From Escherichia coli (GTDB lineage Bacteria > Pseudomonadota > Gammaproteobacteria > Enterobacterales > Enterobacteriaceae): a stretch of 64,000 bases of DNA. The position numbers were made by a program, and so were the translations under genes. The stretch lies in the NCBI RefSeq assembly GCF_965641715.1, contig NZ_OZ282453.1; one strand, given 5' to 3'. The first letter of the stretch is position 1. Each line of letters starts with the position of its first letter. The notes beneath the pieces were generated by a model that was not told the DNA's origin, did no database searches, and worked only from the letters and a program-made list of their open reading frames with translations. Positions 13,885 to 30,568 of this stretch are shown in pieces.

Positions 13885-14994
13885 ATGAACGAACAATCCC
13901 AGGCCAAATCACCAGAAGCCTTGCGCGCAATGGTCGCCGGGACACTGGCCAATTTTCAGCACCCAACCCTGAAGCATAACCTCACCACGCTGAAAGCGTT
14001 GCACCATGTCGCCTGGATGGACGACACGTTGCATGTGGAACTGGTTATGCCATTCGTCTGGCATAGCGCGTTTGAAGAGTTAAAAGAGCAATGTAGCGCC
14101 GAACTGCTGCGTATCACCGGGGCGAAAGCTATCGACTGGAAACTGTCGCACAATATCGCCACCTTAAAACGCGTGAAGAATCAGCCGGGTATTAATGGCG
14201 TGAAGAACATCATTGCGGTCAGTTCCGGTAAAGGCGGCGTGGGTAAATCCTCCACGGCGGTAAACCTGGCGCTGGCACTGGCGGCGGAAGGGGCGAAAGT
14301 CGGTATTCTGGACGCCGATATCTACGGCCCATCAATTCCCACCATGCTGGGCGCAGAAAATCAGCGTCCAACTTCGCCGGACGGTACCCATATGGCACCG
14401 ATTATGTCTCATGGCCTGGCAACCAATTCAATTGGTTATCTGGTCACTGACGACAATGCGATGGTGTGGCGTGGACCGATGGCGAGCAAGGCGTTAATGC
14501 AGATGTTGCAGGAAACCTTGTGGCCGGATCTCGACTATCTGGTGCTTGATATGCCGCCAGGCACCGGTGACATTCAATTGACGCTGGCGCAGAACATTCC
14601 GGTAACTGGTGCAGTCGTGGTCACCACCCCGCAGGACATCGCGTTGATCGATGCGAAAAAAGGCATTGTGATGTTCGAGAAAGTCGAGGTTCCGGTGCTC
14701 GGTATTGTCGAGAACATGAGTGTGCATATTTGTAGTAACTGTGGTCACCATGAACCGATTTTCGGTACCGGTGGTGCAGAGAAACTGGCTGAAAAATACC
14801 ATACACAGCTGCTGGGGCAGATGCCGTTACACATCTCCTTACGTGAGGATCTCGATAAAGGCACGCCAACGGTTATCAGCCGTCCGGAGAGCGAATTTAC
14901 CGCTATCTACCGCCAGCTGGCTGACCGCGTTGCAGCTCAGCTCTACTGGCAGGGTGAAGTTATTCCAGGCGAGATTTCCTTCCGCGCGGTCTAA
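13885..14994 (+). CDS. apbC: Fe-S cluster carrier ATPase ApbC/Mrp
   Basis: 369 aa; P-loop SGKGGVGKS; divergent from metG. Confidence 0.9.
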   Translation: MNEQSQAKSPEALRAMVAGTLANFQHPTLKHNLTTLKALHHVAWMDDTLHVELVMPFVWHSAFEELKEQCSAELLRITGAKAIDWKLSHNIATLKRVKNQPGINGVKNIIAVSSGKGGVGKSSTAVNLALALAAEGAKVGILDADIYGPSIPTMLGAENQRPTSPDGTHMAPIMSHGLATNSIGYLVTDDNAMVWRGPMASKALMQMLQETLWPDLDYLVLDMPPGTGDIQLTLAQNIPVTGAVVVTTPQDIALIDAKKGIVMFEKVEVPVLGIVENMSVHICSNCGHHEPIFGTGGAEKLAEKYHTQLLGQMPLHISLREDLDKGTPTVISRPESEFTAIYRQLADRVAAQLYWQGEVIPGEISFRAV

Positions 14995-15255
14995 CGCCTA
15001 TTAACCATTCTGGTTATTCTTCATACACCGCAGAGATGTTACATTGATGCGGTGTATTTGTTTTTGCCGCATTAATGAACACTTATTTAATACTGCGAAT
15101 ATTCAGTGGATCTTAGTCCGAAACTGTACAAAGGCGATTGATTGTGCAACCACTGTCTCTTTATCATCCCTCGTGGCTGTGTAGCGGATGTACAGCTATA
15201 GTGTGTTATGCACTCAATCTACCCGGCATAACCTTTACTACAGGGATAACGTTCA

Positions 15256-15537
15256 ATGAATAAGTATTGGTTGTCAGGAGCTGTTTTTCTTGCTTATGGA
15301 CTAGCATCACCCGCGTTCTCTTCTGATACTGCAACATTAACCATCAATGGCAGAATTAGTTCCCCTACATGCAGTATGGATGTTGTTAATAATCATCTTC
15401 AGCAACGTTGTGGGCAGTTGTTACAACGAGTTGAAACCAACTATCGTGCTTCTTCTACTGCAAAAGGCGTTACGACAGAAGTGGTAGCTGTGGGTAATAA
15501 CGACAAACGCAAAATCGTGTTAAATCGCTACGATTAA
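15256..15537 (+). CDS. yehE: Small secreted protein YehE-like (93 aa)
   Basis: Signal-peptide-like N-terminus; position upstream of the fimbrial operon. Confidence 0.55.
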   Translation: MNKYWLSGAVFLAYGLASPAFSSDTATLTINGRISSPTCSMDVVNNHLQQRCGQLLQRVETNYRASSTAKGVTTEVVAVGNNDKRKIVLNRYD

Positions 15538-15828
15538 TTTGCCAACACCGTTTTAAGCATATTTAAAAAGCCAAAATCATTCCTATGAATGATTTTGGCT
15601 TTTTTATTCATCCCATAAATGTTATTTACGGTAATTTACGGTAATTAATCAGTTTCAAAAATGTTTGTTATAGCGAATTATTTGTTGTATTTATATCGCA
15701 TTAGTTAATTTGTTTTAAATCAACAAAACAATATGTTTACATTGCGGCAACCTTTTTGATGTGAGAAATTTGTTTCCAAGAGATACAGACTCTTAACAAA
15801 ACAAAATAAACTTATTAAGGAATGCATC

Positions 15829-16371
15829 ATGAAACATTCAATTATTGCTGTCGCTGTCTTATCTTCTGTATTTATGAGTGCTGGTATTTTCGCTGCTGAA
15901 GTAGATACCGGAACTTTAACCATTAAAGGTAATATTGCTGAATCACCATGTACATTTGTCGCTGGCGGTGATTCAGTCAGTATTAATATGCCGACTGTAC
16001 CCACCACTGTATTTGATGGAAAAGCGAAATATTCAACTTATGATGGCGCGGTTGGTGTAACCAGCAGTATGCTGAAAATTACTTGTCCGAAGACTATTGA
16101 TGGCGTAAAACTTTCGTTGATCACCAACGAGAAAATTCTTGGTAATGATAAGGCAATATCCAGTAGTAATGACACAGTTGGATACTATCTCTATTTGGGA
16201 GATAGCAGTGACGTACTGGATATTTCCGCACCATTTAATATTGAAAGTTATAAAACTGCTGATGGACAATATGCAATACCGTTTAAGGCAAAATATCTGA
16301 AGTTGACTGACAGTGGTGTTGCATCTGGTACTGTTAACTCTTCATTGGTTATGCGTGTTGCCCAGGATTAA
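15829..16371 (+). CDS. yehD: Fimbrial major subunit (chaperone-usher pathway)
   Basis: 180 aa, signal peptide MKHSIIAVAVLSSVFMSAGIFA, fimbrillin-like; first gene of the yeh operon. Confidence 0.75.
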   Translation: MKHSIIAVAVLSSVFMSAGIFAAEVDTGTLTIKGNIAESPCTFVAGGDSVSINMPTVPTTVFDGKAKYSTYDGAVGVTSSMLKITCPKTIDGVKLSLITNEKILGNDKAISSSNDTVGYYLYLGDSSDVLDISAPFNIESYKTADGQYAIPFKAKYLKLTDSGVASGTVNSSLVMRVAQD

Positions 16372-16410
16372 ATATTTAAAATAATCATCTTGTTTTTTCA
16401 GTAAGTTAAA

Positions 16411-17133
16411 ATGGCCGCCATATTCATGGCGGCCAGCATAAATATAAGAGGCATTAAGATGAAAGGGTTATTATCTTTACTCATCTCTTCTATGATATTC
16501 CCCGTGCATGCCGGAATGGTTATTTTCGGGACCCGTATCATTTACCCGGCAGAGCAGAAAGAGGTCATGGTACAACTGATGAATCAGGGAAACCGCTCTT
16601 CGCTGATGCAGGCGTGGATTGATGATGGCGACACGTCTCTGCCGCCAGAAAAGATTCAGGTTCCTTTCATGTTAACGCCACCAGTAGTGAAAGTAGCGGC
16701 CAATTCTGGGCAACAAATAAAAATTAAAATCATGCCTAATAAATTACCCAGTAATAAGGAAAGTATTTTTTATCTTAATGTTCTGGATATTCCACCGAAT
16801 AGCCCAGAAGATGAAGGAAAGAATGCGTTAAAATTTGCCATGCAAAACAGAATCAAGTTGTTTTACCGACCTGCTGGTATTGCTCCGGTAAATAAAACGA
16901 CTTTTAAAAAATTACGAGTGAGTCGTAGCGGTAATAACGTAGTCATAAAAAATGACTCGCCAAATTGGGTAACGATTTCTGATGTTAAGGCTAATAACGT
17001 CAAAGTGAATTATGAAACAATCATGATTGCACCACATGAAAGTCAGAATGTTAGTGTAAAAAATAATAATGCGAATAGCTGGCAACTGACCATTATCGAT
17101 GACCACGGCAACTATATTAGTGACAAAATTTAA
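16411..17133 (+). CDS. yehC: Periplasmic fimbrial chaperone (PapD-like)
   Basis: Track ORF; signal peptide MKGLLSLLISSMIFPVHAG; PapD-like motifs (IYPAEQKE, NRIKLFYRP); true start may be the internal Met at 16459. Confidence 0.8.
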   Translation: MAAIFMAASINIRGIKMKGLLSLLISSMIFPVHAGMVIFGTRIIYPAEQKEVMVQLMNQGNRSSLMQAWIDDGDTSLPPEKIQVPFMLTPPVVKVAANSGQQIKIKIMPNKLPSNKESIFYLNVLDIPPNSPEDEGKNALKFAMQNRIKLFYRPAGIAPVNKTTFKKLRVSRSGNNVVIKNDSPNWVTISDVKANNVKVNYETIMIAPHESQNVSVKNNNANSWQLTIIDDHGNYISDKI

Positions 17134-17148
17134 TTGCAGGAGCTGCCT

Positions 17149-19629
17149 ATGTTGAGAATGACCCCACTTGCATCAGCAATAGTCGCGTTATTGCTCGGCA
17201 TTGAAGCACATGCAGCAGAAGAAACCTTTGACACCCATTTTATGATGGGAGGAATGAAAGGTGAGCAAGTAACAAATTTGCGTCTTGATGATAATCAGCC
17301 TTTACCTGGGCAGTACGACATTGATATTTATGTCAATAAACAATGGCGTGGAAAATATGAGATTATCGTCAAAGATAACCCACATGAAACTTGCCTGACG
17401 CGTGAAATTGTAAAGCGGTTAGGTATAAATAGCGATAATTTTGCACGCGAAAATCAGTGTTTAACATTTGAGCAACTTGTTCAGGGCGGAAGCTACTCCT
17501 GGGATATTGGGATTTTTCGTTTGGATCTCGCTGTTCCGCAAGCCTGGGTCGAAGAGCTGGAAAATGGTTACGTTCCGCCAGTAAACTGGGAGCGGGGAAT
17601 CAATGCGTTTTATACGTCTTATTACGTAAGTCAGTATTACAGTGACTATAAAGCCTCGGGCAATAGTAAGAGCACTTATGTGCGTTTTAACAGTGGGCTA
17701 AATTTGCTGGGATGGCAGCTGCATTCAGATGCCAGTTTTAGCAAAACGGATAATAATCCTGGTGAGTGGAAAAGCAACACACTGTTTCTGGAGCATGGAT
17801 TTTCTCAAATTCTCGGTGCGCTGCGTATTGGTGATATGTACACCTCATCCGATATATTTGATTCCGTTCGCTTCACCGGGGTTCGGTTATTTCGTGATAT
17901 GCAGATGTTGCCAAACTCGAAGCAAAATTTTACCCCACGGGTACAGGGGATTGCCCAGAGTAACGCGTTGGTAACTATTGAACAGAACGGTTTTGTCGTT
18001 TATCAGAAAGAGGTTCCACCAGGTCCGTTTTCGATTAGTGATTTGCAGTTAGCGGGCGGAGGGGCGGATCTTGATGTTAGTGTTAAGGAAGCCGATGGTT
18101 CTGTGACTACGTATCTGGTGCCTTATGCGGCAGTACCTAATATGCTGCAACCAGGTGTATCAAAATATGATTTTGCGGCAGGCCGTAGTCATATTGAAGG
18201 TGCGAGCAAGCAAAGTGATTTTGTCCAGGTCGGTTATCAGTATGGTTTTAATAATTTATTGACGCTGTATGGCGGCACGATGGTTGCTAATAATTACTAT
18301 GCCTTTACCCTCGGAACAGGTTGGAACACGCGTATTGGCGCAATTTCAGTCGATGCAACTAAATCGCACAGTAAGCAAGACAATGGTGATGTGTTTGACG
18401 GACAAAGTTATCAAATTGCCTATAACAAATTTTTGAGCCAAACATCAACACGTTTTGGTCTGGCGGCCTGGCGTTATTCGTCGCGTGATTACCGCACATT
18501 TAACGATTATGTGTGGGCAAATAATAAAGATAATTATCGTCGTGATAAAAACGATGTCTATGATATTGCCGATTATTACCAGAATGATTTTGGTCGCAAA
18601 AATAGCTTTTCCGCCAATATGAGTCAGTCATTGCCAGAAGGCTGGGGATCTGTGTCATTAAGTACTTTATGGCGTGATTACTGGGGGCGAAGCGGCAGTA
18701 GTAAAGATTATCAACTGAGTTATTCCAATAACTGGCGGCGGATAAGCTATACCCTCGCGGCAAGCCAGGCGTATGACGAGAACCACGCCGAAGAGAAACG
18801 CTTTAATATTTTTATATCGATTCCCTTTGACTGGGGCGATGACGTTACGACGCCGCGGCGGCAAATATATATGTCTAACTCAACGACCTTTGATGATCAG
18901 GGTTTTGCTTCAAACAATACCGGATTATCGGGAACCGTTGGGAACCGCGATCAGTTTAACTATGGTATCAACTTGAGCCATCAACATCAGGGAAATGAAA
19001 CGACAGCTGGGGCCAATTTGACCTGGACCGCACCGGCCGCAACAGTGAATGGCAGCTATAGTCAGTCGAGTACTTATCGACAGGTCGGAGCCAGTGTTTC
19101 AGGGGGACTGGTTGCCTGGTCTGGTGGCGTTAATCTGGCGAACCGTCTTTCCGAAACGTTTGCAGTGATGCATGCGCCGGGAATCAAAGATGCTTATGTC
19201 AATGGGCAAAAATATCGCACAACAAACCGTAATGGTGTGGTGGTGTACGACGGACTGACACCTTATCGGGAAAATCACCTGATGATGGATGTGTCGCAAA
19301 GCGATAGCGAAACAGAATTACGCGGGAATCGTAAAATGACCGCCCCTTATCGCGGCGCGGTCGTTCTGGTTGATTTTGATACCGATCAGCGTAAGCCCTG
19401 GTTTATAAAAGCATTAAGATCCGATGGACAGCCATTAACGTTTGGTTATGAAGTCAATGATATGCATGGTCATAACATTGGTGTTGTCGGCCAGGGCAGT
19501 CAGATATTTATTCGCACCAATGAAATACCGCCAGCGGTTAATGTGGCAATTGATAAGCAACAAGGGCTTTCATGCACAATCACCTTCGGTAAAGAGATTG
19601 ATGAAAGTAAAAATTATATCTGTCGGTGA
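17149..19629 (+). CDS. yehB: Fimbrial outer-membrane usher
   Basis: About 826 aa from MLRMTPLASAIVALLLG; usher-type; start set at an internal ATG of the track ORF. Confidence 0.85.
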   Translation: MLRMTPLASAIVALLLGIEAHAAEETFDTHFMMGGMKGEQVTNLRLDDNQPLPGQYDIDIYVNKQWRGKYEIIVKDNPHETCLTREIVKRLGINSDNFARENQCLTFEQLVQGGSYSWDIGIFRLDLAVPQAWVEELENGYVPPVNWERGINAFYTSYYVSQYYSDYKASGNSKSTYVRFNSGLNLLGWQLHSDASFSKTDNNPGEWKSNTLFLEHGFSQILGALRIGDMYTSSDIFDSVRFTGVRLFRDMQMLPNSKQNFTPRVQGIAQSNALVTIEQNGFVVYQKEVPPGPFSISDLQLAGGGADLDVSVKEADGSVTTYLVPYAAVPNMLQPGVSKYDFAAGRSHIEGASKQSDFVQVGYQYGFNNLLTLYGGTMVANNYYAFTLGTGWNTRIGAISVDATKSHSKQDNGDVFDGQSYQIAYNKFLSQTSTRFGLAAWRYSSRDYRTFNDYVWANNKDNYRRDKNDVYDIADYYQNDFGRKNSFSANMSQSLPEGWGSVSLSTLWRDYWGRSGSSKDYQLSYSNNWRRISYTLAASQAYDENHAEEKRFNIFISIPFDWGDDVTTPRRQIYMSNSTTFDDQGFASNNTGLSGTVGNRDQFNYGINLSHQHQGNETTAGANLTWTAPAATVNGSYSQSSTYRQVGASVSGGLVAWSGGVNLANRLSETFAVMHAPGIKDAYVNGQKYRTTNRNGVVVYDGLTPYRENHLMMDVSQSDSETELRGNRKMTAPYRGAVVLVDFDTDQRKPWFIKALRSDGQPLTFGYEVNDMHGHNIGVVGQGSQIFIRTNEIPPAVNVAIDKQQGLSCTITFGKEIDESKNYICR

Positions 19630-19639
19630 GAGGTGAAAT

Positions 19640-20674
19640 ATGATGTTCAGAAATGCAATATTACTAATATTTATATTGTGGGCTAATTTTACCTGGGCTG
19701 GATGTCGTACTACTGCATCATTAAATATTACTGATAGTATTAATGTTGGGGGGATTTTAGCGAATGAAACTTCCTTTAGTAAAAGTGTCGTGTTTACTGG
19801 GATATCTTGTGATACGAGCACGGATAAAATAGTTTATAAAAATATCCAAAGTGATTGGGTTGAAGTTGGGCCTTTTGGTAATGGCGAAAAATTAAAGGTT
19901 AAAATAGAGTCTTTAGGTAAAACCAGCGACACGATTGGGAAATCCAGCAATGCGCAGGCAGTATTACCCTATGTGGTTAAAATAGCCAGAGGTACACCTG
20001 ATTTTACTGGAGAAAGAAAATCTACCTGGTTTATTTCAGATACCGTGATTGCAAATATTGGCGGTGAGTCATCGTCATCCATCGACTTTTGGTTGGGTAT
20101 TTGTAAGGCATTGAAGTTTAACTGGTGTGTGAATTATCTCACCAGCAAACTGGCGGGGGATACTTTTACGCTTGGGTTAAGTATTTCCTATTATCCTAAA
20201 AATACGACCTGTAAGCCTGAAAACACAGTTATAAAAGTAGATGATATCGCCTTGTCCCAGCTCAGAAATCAGGGAAAGATTGCGGCGAACAGTAAGGAAG
20301 GAACAATTACGTTGAAATGTGATAATCTTTTCGGCGACAAAAAACAAGCATCGCGGAATATGGTTGTATATCTTTCTAGCAGTGACTTAGTTAAAGGAAG
20401 TAATACTATTTTGCGTGGTAAAACAGATAATGGTGTAGGGTTTGTGTTGGATCTAACAGAACCACCAAAAGGGACTGAGGCTGCCATTAAAATTTCGGCC
20501 AACGGCGATCAGGGCGCGGCGACATCATTATGGAAAACAGATAAACCAGGAGTTTCATTAAATAGCAACATTATTAATATACCTGTCATGGCCAGTTACT
20601 ATGTATATGATGAAAAAAAAGTTAAATCTGGCGTACTGGAGGCAACCGCATTAATCAACGTGAAATACGACTAA
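19640..20674 (+). CDS. yehA: Fimbrial adhesin-like tip protein
   Basis: 344 aa with signal peptide; last gene of the operon; AT-rich. Confidence 0.7.
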   Translation: MMFRNAILLIFILWANFTWAGCRTTASLNITDSINVGGILANETSFSKSVVFTGISCDTSTDKIVYKNIQSDWVEVGPFGNGEKLKVKIESLGKTSDTIGKSSNAQAVLPYVVKIARGTPDFTGERKSTWFISDTVIANIGGESSSSIDFWLGICKALKFNWCVNYLTSKLAGDTFTLGLSISYYPKNTTCKPENTVIKVDDIALSQLRNQGKIAANSKEGTITLKCDNLFGDKKQASRNMVVYLSSSDLVKGSNTILRGKTDNGVGFVLDLTEPPKGTEAAIKISANGDQGAATSLWKTDKPGVSLNSNIINIPVMASYYVYDEKKVKSGVLEATALINVKYD

Positions 20675-20755
20675 TAACAAGCAAGACGAGCAAGTGGCTA
20701 ATAATAAGAAATAATAAGGTGTCTGCATTTCCCCCTCTCTCCGAGGGGGCTTTTT

Positions 20756-21094
20756 TTAGCGATGATAAAAAATCTCACCGTCGTAGGCTTTAATGATTTT
20801 TCCGTCGGTATTATTGATCAGCACATATGCACCGCCCATATAGGTCCAGTGGGTTCCGGCGTCAGGTGCGGGCAGGTTACGCAACTGCCACTGCTTAATG
20901 TTGTACTCATCGGTACGGTACATCTCTGGTACGGTGTCACCTGGTTTGAAATGCTTGAAGTCAGCAATGAAGCTGCTTAACTCATACTTTGAAATTCCCG
21001 AGGCATTGGTCGAACCCGCGGTGGCTGGTGCGGCCCATGCTGCGCTGGTTACCAGCAAAAGCGCACCCAGCAACATCTTATTTTTTATGGTCAT
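20756..21094 (-). CDS. rcnB: Periplasmic nickel/cobalt homeostasis protein RcnB (YohN)
   Basis: 112 aa from MTIKNKMLLGALLLVTSAAWA (signal peptide); downstream of rcnA; track ORF is longer but the start was chosen at the signal peptide. Confidence 0.7.
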   Translation of the reverse strand: MTIKNKMLLGALLLVTSAAWAAPATAGSTNASGISKYELSSFIADFKHFKPGDTVPEMYRTDEYNIKQWQLRNLPAPDAGTHWTYMGGAYVLINNTDGKIIKAYDGEIFYHR

Positions 21095-21311
21095 ATACTC
21101 TCCACTTTGGGGATCAGTAAAATCAGTCGCATATCTTTCCCGCCATACAATATAACCGACAAGAGATATTTTGTTAGTGATCCCATGATTTCGTAAAAAG
21201 TGTAAATGAAAGGATGCAGCAAAAGCATCCTCATTGAACGAGAAGTGAACGGAATAAGCTGATTTAAGAATCATCCTGGGCTAAAGGGATAACGAAGCCC
21301 AGGTGATTGTT

Positions 21312-22163
21312 TTATCTCATAATACCCATAAAGCCATGCACTCCCATATACAACCCGACTAAACCAATCAACAGACTGGAAAAATAGGGGGCGCGTTTAG
21401 CGAGAGTGTTAAATCCGCTCCAGCGTTTTGCAACTTGTTGAACACTGATTGCCGCTCCAACGCCTACTGTAACCAGCGTTAATGCCAGGCCGATGCTGAA
21501 ACTGACGACCAGTGTTGCGCCCAGTGTCAGGGCTTTCAACTGAATGCAAATCAACAGCACGGTAATTGCTGCCGGGCAGGGAATAAGGCCACCTGTTAAG
21601 CCAAATAACAAAATTTGCCAGTTGGTGACCTCTCTACCATCAAAGCGTCGTTTAATGTCATTGGCATGGGCTCGTGCATGGGCATCCTGATACTCTTCGT
21701 TGTCGCCATGTTCATGATGGTGATGATGTTCGTGGTCGTGGTCGTGGTCGTGGTCTTGATGATCTTCGTGATCGTGGTGATGATGCTCATGATCATGCTC
21801 GTGCATATTCTCCAGCCAGTTGCGTTCGCCGCGCCAGGTACGCCAGAACATCCAGAACGCGGTGCCAATAATGATCACTGCGGAAATCAACTGGAGCCAC
21901 GGTTCTGCTGATTGAGCAGTAAAGCGCTTGCTGATCACCATCCCGCCAAAGGCAATCAACCAGACCACCGCGGTATGCGAAATGGTTGCTGCCAGTCCGA
22001 GCATCACCGCCTGTTTAGTGGTGCCTTTGATGGCGATGATAAACGCCGCCATCATCGTTTTTGAGTGCCCTGGTTCCAGGCCATGAAGCGCACCAAGTAA
22101 GATGGCGCTGGGGATGAAGAACCAGGCGTTTCCTTGCTGAAGAAGAGTTGTAAATTCGGTCAT
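21312..22163 (-). CDS. rcnA: Nickel/cobalt efflux permease RcnA
   Basis: 283 aa membrane protein with a central His/Asp/Glu-rich loop (HEHDHEHHHHDHEDHQDHDHDHDHEHHHHHEH). Confidence 0.9.
   Translation of the reverse strand: MTEFTTLLQQGNAWFFIPSAILLGALHGLEPGHSKTMMAAFIIAIKGTTKQAVMLGLAATISHTAVVWLIAFGGMVISKRFTAQSAEPWLQLISAVIIIGTAFWMFWRTWRGERNWLENMHEHDHEHHHHDHEDHQDHDHDHDHEHHHHHEHGDNEEYQDAHARAHANDIKRRFDGREVTNWQILLFGLTGGLIPCPAAITVLLICIQLKALTLGATLVVSFSIGLALTLVTVGVGAAISVQQVAKRWSGFNTLAKRAPYFSSLLIGLVGLYMGVHGFMGIMR
21732..21755. repeat. Hexanucleotide tandem repeat (GTGGTC x4 on the + strand) encoding the HD-repeat part of the RcnA His-rich loop
   Basis: Seen in sequence: cgtggtcgtggtcgtggtcgtggtc. Confidence 0.7.
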
Positions 22164-22200
22164 GATAATAATTCTTAGTATTAATTCGGCAATCTTATTC

Positions 22201-22235
22201 TACTCCCCCCCAGTACCTGATACTACCCCCCAGTA
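22201..22235. promoter_or_regulatory. Two inverted-repeat sites of the TACT-G6-N-AGTA type (RcnR operator) in the rcnA-rcnR intergenic region
   Basis: Seen: TACTCCCCCCCAGTA and TACTACCCCCCAGTA 5 bp apart; matches the published RcnR recognition motif as I recall it. Confidence 0.65.
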
Positions 22236-22283
22236 GATTAATAGTGCTATGATTTTTCATGTTCTTGTTAACCAGGTGTTGCC

Positions 22284-22556
22284 ATGTCTCATACAATCCG
22301 TGATAAACAGAAACTGAAAGCGCGTGCCAGTAAGATTCAGGGCCAGGTCGTGGCGCTCAAGAAAATGCTCGACGAGCCGCACGAATGCGCTGCAGTTTTA
22401 CAACAGATTGCTGCTATCCGTGGCGCGGTAAACGGTCTGATGCGGGAAGTGATTAAAGGTCATCTGACGGAACACATCGTTCACCAGGGGGATGAGCTAA
22501 AACGTGAAGAAGATCTGGATGTTGTTCTGAAGGTGCTGGATTCATATATCAAATAA
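22284..22556 (+). CDS. rcnR: Ni/Co-responsive transcriptional repressor RcnR (CsoR/RcnR family)
   Basis: 90 aa; divergent from rcnA; contains the H-x-C-containing helix typical of the family. Confidence 0.85.
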
Positions 22557-22644
22557 TTTATTAACGCGATTGTAAAACTGCCGTTTTTCCTCGTTTACAA
22601 CGGGTGCGCTGGACATTACCATCCTCCTCTGCGATTTATCATCG

Positions 22645-22778
22645 CAACCAAACGACTCGGGGTGCCCTTCTACGTGAAGGCTGAGAAATACCCGTATCAC
22701 CTGATCTGGATAATGCCAGCGTAGGGAAGTCACGGACCACCAGGTCATTGCTTCTTCACGTTATGGCAGGAGCAAACT
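22645..22778 (+). promoter_or_regulatory. TPP (THI-box) riboswitch leader of thiMD
   Basis: Sequence ggggtgcccttctacgtgaaggctgagaaatacccgtatcacctgatctggataatgccagcgtagggaa matches the classic thiM aptamer; lies immediately upstream of the thiM start. Confidence 0.8.
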
Positions 22779-23567
22779 ATGCAAGTCGACCTGCTGAGTT
22801 CCGCGCAATCTGCGCACGCGTTACACCTTTTTCACCAACATTCCCCTCTTGTGCATTGCATGACCAATGATGTGGTGCAAACCTTTACTGCCAATACCTT
22901 GCTGGCGCTCGGTGCATCGCCAGCGATGGTTATCGAAACCGAAGAGGCCAGTCAGTTTGCGGCTATCGCCAGTGCCTTGTTGATTAACGTTGGCACGCTG
23001 ACGCAGCCACGCGCACAGGCGATGCGTGCCGCCGTTGAGCAAGCAAAAAGCTCTCAAACCCCCTGGACGCTTGATCCAGTAGCGGTTGGTGCGCTCGATT
23101 ATCGTCGCCATTTTTGTCATGAACTTTTATCTTTTAAACCGGCAGCGATACGTGGTAATGCTTCGGAAATCATGGCATTAGCTGGCGTTGCTACTGGCGG
23201 ACGGGGAGTGGATACCACTGACGCGGCAGCTAATGCGATACCCGCTGCACAAACACTGGCACGGGAAACTGGCGCAATCTTCGTGGTCACTGGCGAGGTG
23301 GATTATGTTACCGATGGTCGTCGCACCGTTGGCATTCACGGCGGCGATCCGTTAATGGCCAAAGTGGTAGGAACTGGCTGTGCATTATCGGCAGTTGTCG
23401 CTGCCTGCTGTGCGTTACCAGGCGATATGCTGGAAAATGTCGCATCTGCCTGTCACTGGATGAAACAAGCCGGAGAACGCGCAGTCGCCAGAAGCGAGGG
23501 GCCAGGCAGTTTTGTTCCACATTTCCTTGATGCGCTCTGGCAATTGACGCAGGAGGTGCAGGCATGA
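22779..23567 (+). CDS. thiM: Hydroxyethylthiazole kinase
   Basis: 262 aa; ThiM-like sequence; overlaps the thiD start by 4 nt. Confidence 0.9.
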
Positions 23568-24364
23568 AACGAATTAACGCTCTGACGATTGCCGGTACTG
23601 ATCCGAGTGGTGGTGCGGGGATTCAGGCCGATCTTAAAACCTTCTCGGCACTTGGCGCTTATGGTTGCTCAGTTATTACTGCTCTGGTGGCGCAAAACAC
23701 CCGTGGCGTACAGTCGGTGTATCGCATTGAGCCTGATTTTGTCGCTGCCCAGCTCGATTCGGTGTTCAGCGATGTGCGAATCGACACCACTAAAATCGGT
23801 ATGTTGGCGGAAACCGATATTGTTGAAGCGGTGGCAGAACGGTTGCAACGTTATCAGATCCAAAACGTGGTACTCGACACCGTTATGCTGGCAAAAAGCG
23901 GCGACCCACTGCTTTCACCTTCGGCGGTTGCTACGCTGCGCAGTCGATTATTGCCACAGGTTTCATTAATAACGCCAAACTTGCCCGAAGCTGCTGCCTT
24001 GCTCGACGCGCCACACGCGCGCACCGAACAGGAAATGCTGGAACAAGGGCGATCGCTGTTGGCGATGGGCTGTGGCGCAGTGCTAATGAAAGGTGGTCAT
24101 CTGGATGATGAGCAAAGCCCGGACTGGCTGTTTACCCGCGAGGGTGAACAACGGTTTACCGCACCGCGCATTATGACCAAAAACACCCACGGCACTGGTT
24201 GTACACTCTCTGCGGCGTTGGCTGCACTACGCCCGCGCCATACAAACTGGGCTGACACCGTACAGGAGGCAAAAAGCTGGCTTTCATCGGCGTTAGCACA
24301 GGCCGACACGCTGGAAGTTGGTCACGGTATTGGTCCGGTTCACCACTTCCACGCCTGGTGGTGA
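23564..24364 (+). CDS. thiD: Hydroxymethylpyrimidine/phosphomethylpyrimidine kinase
   Basis: 266 aa; N-terminus [31 protein letters not shown] typical of ThiD/PdxK kinases. Confidence 0.9.
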
Positions 24365-24419
24365 GCACCGTACTATAGCTGCTTTGGTTATTGTCAGCCT
24401 TTGGCACTGACATTCAGGG

Positions 24420-25247
24420 ATGAAACCAATGCAGCTAAGCATTACCAGTCGAAAAAAACTCACCGCTCTATTATGCGCTCTTGGGCTAATTTCCATCGTT
24501 GCAATTTATCCGCGTCAGACGGTGAATTTTTTCTATTCGACAGCAGTTCAGATTACAGACTACATCCACTTCTACGGTTATCGCCCGGTTAAATCTTTCG
24601 CTATTCGCATTCCTGCCAGTTACACCATTCACGGAATAGATGTTTCGCGCTGGCAGGAGCGGATCGACTGGCAGCGGGTGGCAAAAATGCGCGACAACGG
24701 TATCCGCTTACAGTTTGCTTTTATTAAGGCGACGGAAGGCGAAAAGCTGGTGGACCCGTATTTTTCGCGTAACTGGCAACTAAGCCGCGAAAATGGCCTG
24801 CTGCGCGGGGCGTATCATTATTTCTCCCCGTCGGTAGCAGCGCCGGTTCAGGCGCGATTATTTCTGCAAACGGTGGATTTCTCACAAGGCGATTTCCCTG
24901 CCGTGCTGGACGTAGAAGAACGGGGAAAATTATCGGCAAAAGAATTACGCAAGCGGGTAAGTCAGTGGCTAAAAATGGTCGAAAAAAGTACGGGAAAAAA
25001 GCCGGTTATTTACTCAGGAGCCGTTTTTTATCACACCAATCTGGCGGGCTATTTCAATGAATATCCGTGGTGGGTGGCTCACTACTATCAACGTCGTCCG
25101 GACAATGACGGCATGGCCTGGCGCTTCTGGCAGCATTCCGACCGTGGACAGGTAGATGGCATCAATGGTCCGGTGGATTTTAATGTATTTAATGGCACGG
25201 TGGAGGAGTTGCAGGCATTCGTTGATGGGATTAAAGAAACGCCTTAA
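24420..25247 (+). CDS. yegX: Glycoside hydrolase family 25 (lysozyme-like) protein YegX
   Basis: 275-aa track ORF; N-terminal membrane anchor; GH25-like; start may be a few codons downstream. Confidence 0.7.
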   Translation: MKPMQLSITSRKKLTALLCALGLISIVAIYPRQTVNFFYSTAVQITDYIHFYGYRPVKSFAIRIPASYTIHGIDVSRWQERIDWQRVAKMRDNGIRLQFAFIKATEGEKLVDPYFSRNWQLSRENGLLRGAYHYFSPSVAAPVQARLFLQTVDFSQGDFPAVLDVEERGKLSAKELRKRVSQWLKMVEKSTGKKPVIYSGAVFYHTNLAGYFNEYPWWVAHYYQRRPDNDGMAWRFWQHSDRGQVDGINGPVDFNVFNGTVEELQAFVDGIKETP

Positions 25248-25298
25248 ATAAGAAGCAGTGATATACTCCCACCAGACTCCCTGGCAGGAAAAAGACAA

Positions 25299-26045
25299 AT
25301 GGAACAAGCGCATACCCAGCTGATTGCCCAACTGAACGAGCGTATTTTAGCGGCGGATAACACGCCGCTTTATATTAAGTTTGCCGAAACGGTAAAAAAT
25401 GCCGTGCGCAGCGGGGTGCTGGAGCATGGCAATATTTTGCCCGGTGAGCGTGATTTAAGTCAGTTAACCGGCGTTTCGCGCATTACGGTGCGCAAGGCGA
25501 TGCAGGCGCTGGAAGAAGAGGGCGTGGTGACGCGTTCGCGTGGTTACGGCACGCAGATCAACAACATCTTCGAATACTCGTTGAAAGAAGCGCGAGGTTT
25601 TTCTCAGCAGGTGGTATTGCGCGGGAAAAAGCCCGATACGCTATGGGTTAACAAGCGTGTCGTGAAATGTCCCGAAGAAGTCGCGCAGCAGCTGGCGGTC
25701 GAAGCGGGAAGTGATGTCTTTTTGCTTAAGCGTATTCGCTATGTCGATGAAGAAGCGGTATCGATTGAGGAATCGTGGGTTCCGGCGCATTTAATTCATG
25801 ATGTTGATGCCATCGGAATTTCTCTTTATGACTATTTCCGCAGCCAGCACATTTACCCACAACGTACACGTTCCCGCGTTAGCGCCCGGATGCCAGATGC
25901 CGAGTTTCAGTCACATATTCAGTTAGATAGCAAAATACCGGTGCTGGTGATCAAGCAAGTGGCGCTTGACCAACAGCAACGGCCTATTGAATACAGCATT
26001 AGCCACTGTCGCAGCGATCTATACGTTTTTGTTTGCGAGGAGTAG
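25299..26045 (+). CDS. yegW: GntR/HutC-family transcriptional regulator YegW
   Basis: 248 aa; N-terminal winged HTH (LPGERDLSQLTGVSRITVRKAMQAL) plus UTRA-like C-terminus. Confidence 0.8.
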   Translation: MEQAHTQLIAQLNERILAADNTPLYIKFAETVKNAVRSGVLEHGNILPGERDLSQLTGVSRITVRKAMQALEEEGVVTRSRGYGTQINNIFEYSLKEARGFSQQVVLRGKKPDTLWVNKRVVKCPEEVAQQLAVEAGSDVFLLKRIRYVDEEAVSIEESWVPAHLIHDVDAIGISLYDYFRSQHIYPQRTRSRVSARMPDAEFQSHIQLDSKIPVLVIKQVALDQQQRPIEYSISHCRSDLYVFVCEE

Positions 26046-26984
26046 TTCCTCGCGCGTTGGCGCACAATCACCGCCCCGATGCCCGACAACCCACGACGCC
26101 ACTGCATTGCCCAGTAATACGGCATCCGCCAGTGGCAGACCAGAGGCCAGCCCGGCAAGTACGCCACCGGCATGACTGTCGCCCGCCCCAATGGTGTCGA
26201 CAACTTGCGTTGGAAATGCCGGAATGCAGCCAGAAGCGTCGTTGCTGAAATACCATGCGCCTTCTTTATCGAGACGAACGATCAACGGCGCGGCAAATTT
26301 CTCCTGCCATTGTTTGCCAAGTGTTGTTATCTCTGCGGATAAAGCAAAACGTTCGGCGGCAATCTCAGCCTCTTGACGATTGAGTGACACTAAAGGTCGA
26401 CAGGCCATGATCCGCGCCAGTAATGCATCCGGGATATCGCCAATACGTGGGCCAAAATCGATAAACGGCGTCACGTCTTGCAGCTTTTCCAGCCATTCCA
26501 CTAATAATTCGCCGCAGGGCGAGGCCATTTGATAACCGGAAAAATAGAGCAGGCTGCCAGGCGCAACGGTTAATCGCGCCAGACACTGGCGATTCCACTG
26601 ATTTTCCACACCGCTGAATGACATAAAAGTGCGTTCGCCATCCGGCTCAACCAGCGCCAGACACCAGCCGTTATCACCTTCGGCGTTATCGATCAGGCTG
26701 ATTAAGCCCTCTTTTGCCATCCGGTTGCGAATAATCTCCGCCCACACGCCCTGACCGAGCGGCAAGGCGTTACCCGCTTCGATGCCGAGGCGTTTTAACG
26801 CCACGGCAATATTCAGGGCGCAGCCGCCAACGTTAACGCTCTGCTGTTTCAGTTCGATATCGCACCCACGCCAGGGGAGGGCATAAGCGTCGGCGATCAC
26901 GTCAATGACCGCCGCGCCGACGACCATCACCGGCTGACGCGTGGTTAATTCAGGCAGCAGCGTGTGTAATCGAGCGCCGCTCAT
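26019..26984 (-). CDS. yegV: PfkB-family sugar/nucleoside kinase YegV
   Basis: 321 aa; ribokinase-like motifs (DTIGAGDSHAGG). Confidence 0.8.
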   Translation of the reverse strand: MSGARLHTLLPELTTRQPVMVVGAAVIDVIADAYALPWRGCDIELKQQSVNVGGCALNIAVALKRLGIEAGNALPLGQGVWAEIIRNRMAKEGLISLIDNAEGDNGWCLALVEPDGERTFMSFSGVENQWNRQCLARLTVAPGSLLYFSGYQMASPCGELLVEWLEKLQDVTPFIDFGPRIGDIPDALLARIMACRPLVSLNRQEAEIAAERFALSAEITTLGKQWQEKFAAPLIVRLDKEGAWYFSNDASGCIPAFPTQVVDTIGAGDSHAGGVLAGLASGLPLADAVLLGNAVASWVVGHRGGDCAPTREELLLANKNV

Positions 26985-27985
26985 ACCACCTCCCGTTGTT
27001 GGCGATACTTCGCCAGCGCTGTGGCATAGCGGTTGAAATCAAGCTGATTTACCGCATCCAGTTCCGCCTTTAACGCAGGATCGATAGCGTTAACGCCATG
27101 CAACGCGCCGCAAATCGCCGTCGCCATAGCGCCGATGGTGTCTGTGTCGCCGCCAAGGTTAGCGCACAGGACGGCGCAACGGTTCGGGTCGGTTTGTGCC
27201 AGTTCAACCAGCGCAATGGCGCACGGAACGGACTCAATAGTGCTGGTACCTGCGCCAACGACCTGGTAAAGCTGTTCGCTGGCGGATTCAGTGCCGTCGG
27301 CATTGCGCACAATTTTCAGCGCAATCTCCAGACGTGCTGCCAGTGAGGCGCTGAAGGTAGTGATGCGTTTTTGCTGTGCATGTCGCGCAATTGAAGGCAG
27401 TGAATCAACAATCGCTGACCAGCTTTCTCCGTCAATGGCACGAGAAATCGCCCATGCGATGACTACCGCGCCTGCAACCGCCAGATCGGATTTATGGGTC
27501 GGGCTGGACGCCAGCGCCACATCATCAATAAAGGAATCAACATCGTGCGCCGGAAGCAAACAACCTAATGGCGAGACGCGCATCGCTGCGCCGTTGGTCA
27601 CGCCGTTGTTTTCCAGTTCAGCAACGGGTTTACCGTCGCGAATGGCGTTGAGAGCAATCTTCGAGGTCGGACCTAGTACGTTTTTGTTAAAGGCGTCGAA
27701 ACGCAGCGCCCAGTCGAGAATATTACGCCCAATCAGATTCGGGTCGATCTTGCCTTCACGTTCCAGTAACGCATCCGCCAGACACAGCGCCATCGAGGTA
27801 TCGTCGGTGAATTCGGCGCGGTTAAAATAACAGGCCGCGTTATTCTCCTTTGGTCCAGGCAGAAAACGGTCAATCCAGCCAAAGTGTGCTTTAACGCGGC
27901 TGCGTGGCCAAAGCTCGGAGGGCATCCCCATCGCATCCCCTAACGCCTGCCCATAAAGAGCACCGAGAATACGTTCTGTTTTCAT
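26981..27985 (-). CDS. yegU: ADP-ribosylglycohydrolase-family protein YegU
   Basis: 334 aa; N-terminus RILGALYGQALGDAMGMP typical of ARH/DraG family; 4-nt overlap with yegV. Confidence 0.8.
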   Translation of the reverse strand: MKTERILGALYGQALGDAMGMPSELWPRSRVKAHFGWIDRFLPGPKENNAACYFNRAEFTDDTSMALCLADALLEREGKIDPNLIGRNILDWALRFDAFNKNVLGPTSKIALNAIRDGKPVAELENNGVTNGAAMRVSPLGCLLPAHDVDSFIDDVALASSPTHKSDLAVAGAVVIAWAISRAIDGESWSAIVDSLPSIARHAQQKRITTFSASLAARLEIALKIVRNADGTESASEQLYQVVGAGTSTIESVPCAIALVELAQTDPNRCAVLCANLGGDTDTIGAMATAICGALHGVNAIDPALKAELDAVNQLDFNRYATALAKYRQQREVV

Positions 27986-29259
27986 TTAACTTCCCCTTGT
28001 GTCAACGCAATATCGCGATCATCGACCTTGATAGCCGTAATTTCGTTGTCGGATTCGCGGAAAAAAATCATGAACAGCACGGCGATAATGGCAATCATCA
28101 CCGCGCCAAAAGTCCACATCCCGGACCAGTTGAAAGTCAGTCCGTTTACCGGTTCCTGATAAGCGAACATCTTTTCCATCATCACACCGCCAAGACGATA
28201 GCCGAGCAAACTGCCGAAGCCCTGGCAGCAGAGCGTGATCAGCCCCTGCGCGGCGGTACGCATATGCACGGGGGCTTTTTTATCGACATAGATGTAAGCG
28301 GTAACGTAGTAAAAATCGTAACTTACGCCGTGAAGCAAAATACCGAGGAACAGTAACGCGTAGGTGAAATATTCATCCGCACTACCGTAAATAAAGAAGC
28401 CATAGCGGATCGCAGCGGTGATTAGACCAAGCAATAATACCTTTTTGATACCAAAGCGTTTAGTGAAAAACGGCAATGCCAGCATAAAGAAGATTTCAGA
28501 GAACTGGCCGAGCGTCATCCAGCCGGTGGCGTTTTTCATGCCAACTTCGGTCAGATAACCGTTGGCAAAGATGTAATAGAACGCCAGTGGCATCGCAAAC
28601 AGGAATGAACAGAAGAAAAAGACGAGGAAGTTTTTATCGCGCAGCAGGATCAGCGCATCCAGGCCGAGCATGACTTTAATGTCCATTTTGCCGGTGCTTT
28701 TTGGTGGCGTGTCGGGCAGGAAAAACGCAAACACACCGAGCAGAGCAGAACTTCCGGCGGTAATCAGCAGCGGGATGTTAGTCGGTGAGATATCGGCATA
28801 CCCCAGCATTTGCGGCAAGAAACCACATGCCAGACCGGAGGCAATCCAGCCGATAGTGCCCATCACACGAATGCGCGGGAAATCACGCTCAACATCCGGC
28901 ACGTTGGCAAAAGCGATGCTGTTAGTCAGCGCAATGGTCGGCATATAGGTTAGCGAGTAGGCCAGCAGTAACGGGAAGAACCCGGCAAAAGTGGTCTGTT
29001 GCGCGGCGAAATACATCAGCACCGCACCAGCGAACATCAATACCGCCAGCACTTTCTGCGCCGAGAAAAAGCGGTCAGTGATGGAGCCAACCAGAATTGG
29101 CGACAGGATCGCCGCAATGGCTGTGCAGGCATACGACCAGCCAATTTCTCCGGCACTAAAACCGCTTTTACTTAACCACAACCACAATGGCACAAACCAC
29201 GCGCCCCAGATAAACCATTCAACAAACATCATGAACGACAGCTTTGCTGTTGTTTTCAT
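27982..29259 (-). CDS. yegT: MFS nucleoside:H+ symporter-family transporter YegT
   Basis: 425 aa, polytopic membrane protein; 4-nt overlap with yegU. Confidence 0.8.
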   Translation of the reverse strand: MKTTAKLSFMMFVEWFIWGAWFVPLWLWLSKSGFSAGEIGWSYACTAIAAILSPILVGSITDRFFSAQKVLAVLMFAGAVLMYFAAQQTTFAGFFPLLLAYSLTYMPTIALTNSIAFANVPDVERDFPRIRVMGTIGWIASGLACGFLPQMLGYADISPTNIPLLITAGSSALLGVFAFFLPDTPPKSTGKMDIKVMLGLDALILLRDKNFLVFFFCSFLFAMPLAFYYIFANGYLTEVGMKNATGWMTLGQFSEIFFMLALPFFTKRFGIKKVLLLGLITAAIRYGFFIYGSADEYFTYALLFLGILLHGVSYDFYYVTAYIYVDKKAPVHMRTAAQGLITLCCQGFGSLLGYRLGGVMMEKMFAYQEPVNGLTFNWSGMWTFGAVMIAIIAVLFMIFFRESDNEITAIKVDDRDIALTQGEVK

Positions 29260-29515
29260 CTTTTAATTCCTTCATGACAGGTAATGTAAGGTACGCGATG
29301 ACAATACCACTTAATAATACCTTTTAAATACCTTTGCGGTGAAAACTTGACCGCGCTAACATTTTTTCTGATGAATCGAGCCAACAGAAAACGCTGAAAA
29401 AACATCCAAAAGATGGAAAAACTCGCCCGTAACGACCAGGATTATGATTGCCCGCAAAAGGCGGGCCAGGACAATCCATAGCCGATATCCAATCGGAATT
29501 TACGGGAGCATAGTA

Positions 29516-30568
29516 ATGACAGATATTGCGCAGTTGCTTGGCAAAGACGCCGACAACCTTTTACAGCACCGTTGTATGACTATTCCTTCTGACCAGCTTT
29601 ATCTCCCCGGACATGACTACGTAGACCGCGTGATGATTGACAATAATCGCCCGCCTGCGGTGTTACGTAATATGCAGACGTTGTACAACACCGGGCGTCT
29701 GGCTGGCACAGGATATCTTTCTATTCTGCCCGTTGACCAGGGCGTTGAGCACTCTGCCGGAGCTTCATTTGCTGCTAACCCGCTCTACTTTGACCCGAAA
29801 AACATTGTTGAACTGGCGATCGAAGCGGGCTGTAACTGTGTGGCATCAACTTACGGCGTGTTGGCGTCGGTATCGCGGCGCTATGCGCATCGCATTCCAT
29901 TTCTCGTAAAACTTAATCACAACGAGACGCTAAGTTACCCGAATACCTACGATCAAACGCTGTATGCCAGCGTGGAGCAGGCCTTCAACATGGGCGCGGT
30001 GGCGGTTGGTGCGACTATCTATTTTGGCTCGGAAGAATCACGTCGCCAGATTGAAGAAATTTCTGCGGCTTTTGAACGTGCGCACGAGCTGGGCATGGTG
30101 ACAGTGCTGTGGGCCTATTTGCGTAACTCCGCCTTTAAGAAAGATGGCGTTGATTACCATGTCTCCGCCGACCTGACTGGTCAGGCGAACCATCTGGCGG
30201 CAACCATAGGTGCAGATATCGTCAAACAAAAAATGGCGGAAAATAACGGCGGCTATAAAGCAATTAATTACGGTTATACCGACGATCGCGTGTACAGCAA
30301 GTTAACCAGCGAAAACCCGATTGATCTGGTGCGTTATCAGTTAGCTAACTGCTATATGGGCCGGGCCGGGTTGATAAACTCCGGCGGTGCTGCAGGCGGT
30401 GAAACTGACCTCAGCGATGCAGTGCGTACTGCAGTTATCAACAAACGCGCTGGCGGAATGGGGCTGATTCTTGGACGTAAGGCGTTCAAGAAATCGATGG
30501 CTGACGGCGTGAAACTGATTAACGCCGTGCAGGACGTTTATCTCGATAGCAAAATTACTATCGCCTGA
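29516..30568 (+). CDS. fbaB: Fructose-bisphosphate aldolase class I
   Basis: 350 aa from [24 protein letters not shown]; the track ORF starts 24 codons upstream. Confidence 0.9.

Follow-up and report, generated by a model that had tools for sequence, protein, structure and literature searches.

The 35-bp element at positions 22201-22235 of the window, by which we mean the whole 64-kb stretch of E. coli DNA analysed here, is almost certainly the tandem RcnR operator (rcnO) native to an E. coli-type chromosome, through which metal releases repression of rcnAB and rcnR; nothing that we observed speaks directly against this. At the level of sequence it appears to carry every feature by which an RcnR operator is defined. 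It is an operator that is already known, in its known place, and as such it is ordinary.

Two 15-bp dyads lie between rcnA and rcnR

The element consists of two 15-bp dyads, both of which fall inside the 120-bp rcnA-rcnR intergenic region (22164-22283), together with the two divergent promoters. Site 1, proximal to rcnA (22201-22215), reads TACTCCCCCCCAGTA on the plus strand, with TACT at 22201-22204, a C7 tract at 22205-22211 and AGTA at 22212-22215; it is assigned to the minus strand, where it reads TACTGGGGGGGAGTA, that is, TACT-G6-G-AGTA. Site 2, proximal to rcnR (22221-22235), is likewise assigned to the minus strand and reads TACTACCCCCCAGTA on the plus strand, with TACT at 22221-22224, A followed by C6 at 22225-22231 and AGTA at 22232-22235, and TACTGGGGGGTAGTA (TACT-G6-T-AGTA) on the minus strand. 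The 5-bp spacer CCTGA (22216-22220) separates the two, placing their centres 20 bp apart, and the full stretch around both dyads reads ctTACTCCCCCCCAGTAcctgaTACTACCCCCCAGTAgatt. The initial annotation had described two TACT-C6/7-AGTA repeats 5 bp apart; its coordinates, 22201-22235, and its gap are exact, whereas the shorthand is slightly loose for site 2, whose core is A plus C6. A repeat search detected a 15-nt direct repeat here, its two copies being 93% identical and starting 20 bp apart, and a larger imperfect dyad (22189-22204 / 22232-22247) encloses both sites.

The pattern TACT-N7-AGTA has two matches in the 64-kb window, both of them the operator sites, where dinucleotide shuffles lead one to expect 0.39. 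Similarly, when the G-tract form TACTGGGGGGNAGTA was sought in the same window with up to two mismatches, sites 1 and 2 were the only matches (0.16 expected), and each fits TACT-G6-N-AGTA on the minus strand with no mismatch at all. Calculated from base composition, exact G6 sites are expected about 6e-4 times per 64-kb window, and a pair of them within a single 120-bp intergenic region has a joint expectation of about 1e-13 to 6e-13.

These figures bear on the possibility that the dyads arose by chance, as palindromes without regulatory function in AT-rich promoter DNA. Short 4-bp inverted repeats are indeed common, as the expectation of 0.39 for TACT-N7-AGTA illustrates, but here both matches have G6/G7 cores, lie 20 bp apart and fall exactly between rcnA and rcnR, an arrangement to which the joint expectation just given applies. 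Moreover, the sites are invariant across genera where their flanks drift, and the 35-mer also functions as an operator when it is moved to another promoter (PMC7105576). Because the statistics, the conservation and the published operator sequence all speak against it, coincidence is effectively refuted, and we assign it a negligible probability.

The flanking genes are those of the K-12 rcn locus

The genes rcnA and rcnR run divergently, with rcnB downstream of rcnA, in the order yehA-rcnB-rcnA / rcnR-thiM-thiD that is also found in E. coli K-12. In the case of rcnR (22284-22556, plus strand), the 90-aa product is a Ni(II)/Co(II)-responsive repressor of the CsoR/RcnR family (PF02583), which scores 197 bits against the NF011613 equivalog model (cutoff 138) and is 100% identical to K-12 RcnR. 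Read from the sequence, His3, Cys35, His60 and His64 are all kept, and it is this H-C-H-H motif that sets RcnR apart from its paralogues (PMC11672702). The Ni/Co efflux pump encoded by rcnA (21312-22163, minus strand, 283 aa) aligns with NCBIfam NF007454 over residues 1-283 of 283 at 570 bits and matches Pfam PF03824 (NicO), and rcnB (20756-21094, minus strand, 112 aa, PF11776) encodes the periplasmic modulator of Ni/Co efflux, with 109 of its 112 residues as in K-12 RcnB. With RcnR the same as in K-12, its sensing residues kept, and RcnA and RcnB both full length, the initial description of the element as the landmark of an intact Ni/Co-responsive switch holds as far as sequence can say.

RcnA has 283 residues here and 274 in E. 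coli K-12, the His-rich loop being nine residues longer in the window. The two proteins differ by an indel and by substitutions within the His/Asp-rich cytoplasmic loop (HEHDHEHHHHDHEDHQDHDHDHDHEHHHHHEHGDNEE), and by a few point changes besides; the 283-aa form corresponds to the full length of the NF007454 model. For rcnB, the program-made open reading frame at 20756-21274 (minus strand, 172 aa) is over-extended upstream; the conserved RcnB, with its signal peptide, starts at 21094.

The element matches the published K-12 operator

The 35-mer at 22201-22235 is identical to that of E. coli K-12 MG1655. Across the intergenic region only two positions differ from that strain, 22196, where the window has T for the G of K-12, and 22261, where it has G for A, and both are outside the sites: the first directly adjoins the -10-like TAGAAT of rcnA that is described below, and the second lies in the rcnR leader. 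As reported in papers that cite Iwig & Chivers 2009 and Blaha et al. 2011, the published RcnR motif is TACT-G6-N-AGTA, occurring as two sites (PMC3902906; PMC7055735). Furthermore, the rcnO 35-mer, listed as the 'rcnR binding site' in the supplement to PMC7105576 (TACTGGGGGGTAGTATCAGGTACTGGGGGGGAGTA), is the exact reverse complement of window positions 22201-22235, and when placed downstream of a Bacillus promoter it gives RcnR- and cobalt-dependent expression (PMC7105576). Through the motif fit, the identity with K-12 and the match to rcnO, the repeats are confirmed to correspond to the RcnR recognition element, as had first been proposed, and the published footprint, in the form in which citing papers convey it, agrees. 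The Salmonella RcnR papers PMC5709419 and PMC4528141 and the review PMC11672702 gave no sequence-level detail on the rcn operator.

RcnR sites have been classed as tandem 'type 1' sites, each bound 1:1, with RcnR contacting the minor groove at the TACT/AGTA repeats and reading by its shape the unbroken G tract, which has A-form character (PMC3902906). In both E. coli and Salmonella the target site takes two tetramers, and RcnR autoregulates (PMC7689651). For the identical K-12 sequence, the literature, as relayed in these sources, has apo-RcnR tetramers on both sites repressing rcnA(B) and rcnR, and has Ni(II)/Co(II) binding lowering the DNA affinity of RcnR and so derepressing rcnA(B) and rcnR.

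Published binding data of this kind, which assign the element to RcnR (PMC7055735; PMC3902906), also weigh against a role as RNA, in which a leader hairpin, a G-quadruplex or a metal riboswitch would be formed in the rcnA 5' UTR. The G runs do lie on the rcnA-sense strand and would be transcribed if the rcnA start were upstream of the sites. However, they number two where a quadruplex needs four, an Rfam scan of 22000-22450 found no family match even at E<=1, the conserved feature is a DNA-type TACT/AGTA dyad at helical-turn spacing, and the same element also stands upstream of rcnR, on the other strand. An RNA element is thus very improbable, and a DNA operator for RcnR is the reading that we retain.

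Conservation within E. coli

Among 5,426 complete E. coli genomes, 5,363 contain the 251-bp sequence that surrounds the sites. The 43-bp stretch 22197-22239 is carried by 5,352 complete genomes, of which 4,836 match it at 100% identity. The 65-bp stretch 22186-22250, which includes the T that the window carries at 22196, is found exactly in 365 of the 5,352. In a few complete genomes a C tract differs by one base: site 2 has C7 in A16, site 1 has C8 in PCN061, and site 1 has C6 in O145 RM12522-C8 (loci L002, L003 and L004, in that order). These rare variants may reflect true polymorphism, or else mistakes in the assembly of homopolymers.

If they were real, such variants might be taken as a sign that the C7/C6 tracts are slipped-strand phase-variation switches, which alter promoter spacing and toggle rcnA or rcnR. 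Yet the 43-bp element is identical in the great majority of genomes counted above, neither tract varies in length across Enterobacterales and Vibrio, 6-7 nt would be short for a contingency locus, and the few variants of one base may themselves be homopolymer assembly errors. We therefore consider phase variation highly unlikely by comparison with a fixed RcnR operator.

The larger surroundings behave differently. A 16-kb portion of the window (14000-30000, from the yeh fimbrial genes to yegT/yegU) has a best identity of 98.2-98.8% among the 5,426 complete E. coli genomes and is 90-95% identical to most of them, unlike the rcn intergenic region, which is 99.6% identical to many complete E. coli genomes. 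Taken together, these identities suggest that the yeh region, or the lineage, is divergent or mosaic.

Conservation across species

Beyond E. coli, we searched about 100,000 genomes, each representing one species, with the gene-blind pattern TACTNNSSSSNAGTA-N3-8-TACTNNSSSSNAGTA. As the scan is based on a DNA pattern, its sample is made up of tandem-site loci, and rcnR orthologues without tandem sites lie outside it. It returned 116 loci, where about 3 would be expected by chance (calculated for uniform base composition). At 86 of these, divergent rcnR-like and rcnA-like starts face the tandem sites from opposite sides, and the rcnR-type genes at tandem-site loci are 60-100% identical to RcnR. 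A further 18 loci have an rcnR-like gene only (six at the locus edge, the others with a different partner gene), and three have rcnA only, every one of them at the locus edge. In the nine that are left, neither an rcnR-like nor an rcnA-like gene is found within 300 bp of the sites. Three of the nine come from Vibrio, and there rcnR is about 0.7-1 kb off, tail to tail with a neighbouring 145-aa gene; the other six gave no hit to either kind of gene over the whole locus, and several of them resemble unrelated tandem repeats.

The same counts speak to the question of which protein uses the sites. Members of the CsoR family recognise similar G-tract dyads, and plasmid FrmR-like and DmeR-like genes have related single sites upstream, so that a paralogue such as FrmR, or another metalloregulator, might be proposed as the main user, with RcnR secondary. 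Against this, rcnR-type genes and rcnA are the specific companions of the tandem site, in the 86 loci just described, and both RcnR-dependent repression and autoregulation have been reported at the locus (PMC7055735; PMC7689651). We accordingly give a different principal regulator next to no credence, and take RcnR as the protein that the sites serve.

The geometry of the locus is also preserved. The rcnA ATG stands at a modal distance of 37-38 bp and the rcnR ATG at one of 49-51 bp, the corresponding values in the window being 38 and 49, and 80 of the 116 loci share the 5-bp gap. We measured information over 63 distinct intergenic regions with a 5-bp gap, aligned on the operator, and obtained means of 1.95 bits for site 1, 1.90 for site 2, 0.93 for the spacer and 0.44 and 0.32 for the flanks, figures in which the conservation of TACT, AGTA and the central S is partly forced by the search pattern. 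Columns that the pattern leaves free are nevertheless near invariant: C at 22205 (61/63), A at 22225 (63/63), A at 22220 (63/63) and A at 22197 (62/63). Apart from the A at 22220, the spacer sequence is mostly free. The C tract is on the rcnR-sense strand in every one of the 63 regions. The sites are thus more conserved than the intergenic DNA around them, and the survey finds site sequence, orientation and start-codon distances to be rigidly kept across Enterobacterales and Vibrio.

Putative promoters and a model of the switch

Two putative promoter elements can be proposed beside the sites. For rcnA, a -10-like hexamer TAGAAT (22197-22202, minus strand) would overlap the outer half-site of site 1; the A of its column 22197, which is nearly fixed as noted above, is unconstrained by the search pattern. 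For rcnR, an extended -10-like sequence TGCTATGAT (TGnTATGAT; 22245-22253, plus strand) would lie 10 bp downstream of site 2, and its columns, which belong to the unconstrained flank, have T in 53, G in 50, T in 44, A in 46 and T in 45 of the 63 regions. Both are weak matches to the promoter consensus. A sigma-70 consensus scan chose other, non-conserved candidates, namely TTGCCG-16-TATTAT beside the rcnA ATG and TTAACC-18-TACAAT running into rcnR; these we did not adopt, since in each the -10 box reaches or runs into coding sequence, and they lie in mostly unconserved flank or partly inside the rcnR coding sequence. On the proposed assignment, the sites would overlap core elements of both divergent promoters, which agrees with the published placing of the RcnR sites 'between promoter elements' (PMC3902906) and with the report that PrcnA is intrinsically weak (PMC7105576).

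The model that we favour combines these putative elements with the literature on RcnR. When there is no surplus of Ni(II)/Co(II), one apo-RcnR tetramer would occupy each 15-bp type-1 site, contacting the TACT/AGTA half-sites and recognising the uninterrupted G tract by its A-like shape. A pair of tetramers 20 bp apart would then fill the 35-bp element and keep both rcnAB, for metal efflux, and rcnR repressed. Since 20 bp is close to two helical turns, the two would probably sit on roughly the same face of the DNA. With TAGAAT of rcnA fused to site 1 and TGnTATGAT of rcnR just past site 2, bound RcnR would be predicted to exclude RNA polymerase from both promoters, and the position of the extended -10-like sequence just beyond site 2 implies that this site would cover the rcnR -35 region. 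On binding of Ni(II)/Co(II) at His3/Cys35/His60/His64, the affinity of RcnR for DNA would weaken and both promoters would fire.

The two sites may not be wholly equivalent within this scheme. At the 'N' of TACT-G6-N-AGTA, the rcnA-proximal site has G (61/63) and the rcnR-proximal site has T (63/63), and the orientation of the tracts and the outer flanks are fixed in the orthologous regions too. It is conceivable, though we are doubtful, that sites 1 and 2 are not interchangeable and that their asymmetry could encode differing RcnR affinities or promoter overlaps. Were this so, rcnA and rcnR might be derepressed at different metal levels; on the same tentative reading, the T at 22196, beside the putative rcnA -10, could shift basal expression of efflux.

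As a textbook metalloregulatory operator, the element has small value as a discovery. Its practical use would be as an annotation landmark of a chromosome that probably has an intact Ni/Co efflux switch, and the same element is employed in cobalt and nickel biosensors and in inducible expression systems.

Comparison with related operators

The closest known system is the K-12 operator itself (rcnO; Iwig & Chivers 2009, Blaha et al. 2011, as conveyed by the papers that cite them), which is like the one described here in its 35 bp, position, flanking genes and repressor. The K-12 locus differs from the window in the two SNPs elsewhere in the intergenic region (22196, 22261) and in its shorter RcnA loop. 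An rcnR-rcnA paralogue on large Enterobacterales plasmids, found in 411 PLSDB records, has both 15-mers, the 5-bp gap length and the divergent arrangement of the window, but its spacer is AAATA in place of CCTGA, its flanks have diverged and its RcnR is 92% identical. This mobile paralogue adjoins pco copper-resistance genes on E. coli plasmid p21AR0133A (L005, 2852-4362), where rcnA is annotated as partial or split, in two pieces.

Operators of Enterobacter, Klebsiella and Lelliottia are built from the same TACT-N7-AGTA type-1 units, again between divergent rcnA-like and rcnR-like genes, but have three units with 6-bp gaps, and their RcnR is about 62% identical. Such three-site operators were seen in 13 species (L031, 5718-5774; L076, L093, L108, L118, L053, L064 and others), and in them the third, rcnR-proximal unit has its tract inverted (TACTCAGGGGGAGTA).

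In two genera the tandem operator faces a partner other than rcnA. In Vibrio spp. (L040, 8542-9061; also L048, L062, L050, L115 and L061) it lies 36-85 bp upstream of a conserved 145-aa open reading frame (MKDVKGVFRNLEKMLRKANWFEDGW..., containing CMHAEEDCP), with an rcnR that is 73-75% identical next door. The 145-aa product has no match in Pfam, NCBIfam or PDB, and the gene is for this reason a candidate uncharacterised member of the Ni/Co regulon. In Shewanella (L011, 631-1134; L037 and L044) the operator lies between rcnR (67% identical) and a gene whose 116-aa product is a multi-pass membrane protein in NCBIfam PRK09272 ('hypothetical protein'), and rcnA is absent nearby; two further loci, L045 and L080, also have a PRK09272-family gene, at about 1.2 kb from the operator.

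FrmR-like, DmeR-like and Ralstonia RcnR homologues share with the RcnR operator a TACT-(G/C tract)-AGTA core upstream of a regulator or transporter gene. Their sites differ in being single, not tandem, and in having shorter tracts, C4-C6; the Ralstonia megaplasmid rcnA/rcnR pair (62% identical), for example, has one site, TACTCCCCCCTAGTA. The FrmR-like and DmeR-like systems differ as well in their partner genes, which are dmeF or a formaldehyde dehydrogenase operon.

The type-2 CsoR operators of M. tuberculosis, S. lividans and B. subtilis are likewise G/C-tract pseudopalindromes with TAC/GTA dyads, and CsoR is, like RcnR, a tetrameric all-helical repressor of the same fold that is released on effector binding (PMC3902906). 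They differ from the type-1 element of the window in having two short G/C tracts 2-4 bases apart, with about 11 bp between the dyads, in binding two tetramers per site, and in responding to Cu(I) as the effector (PMC3902906).
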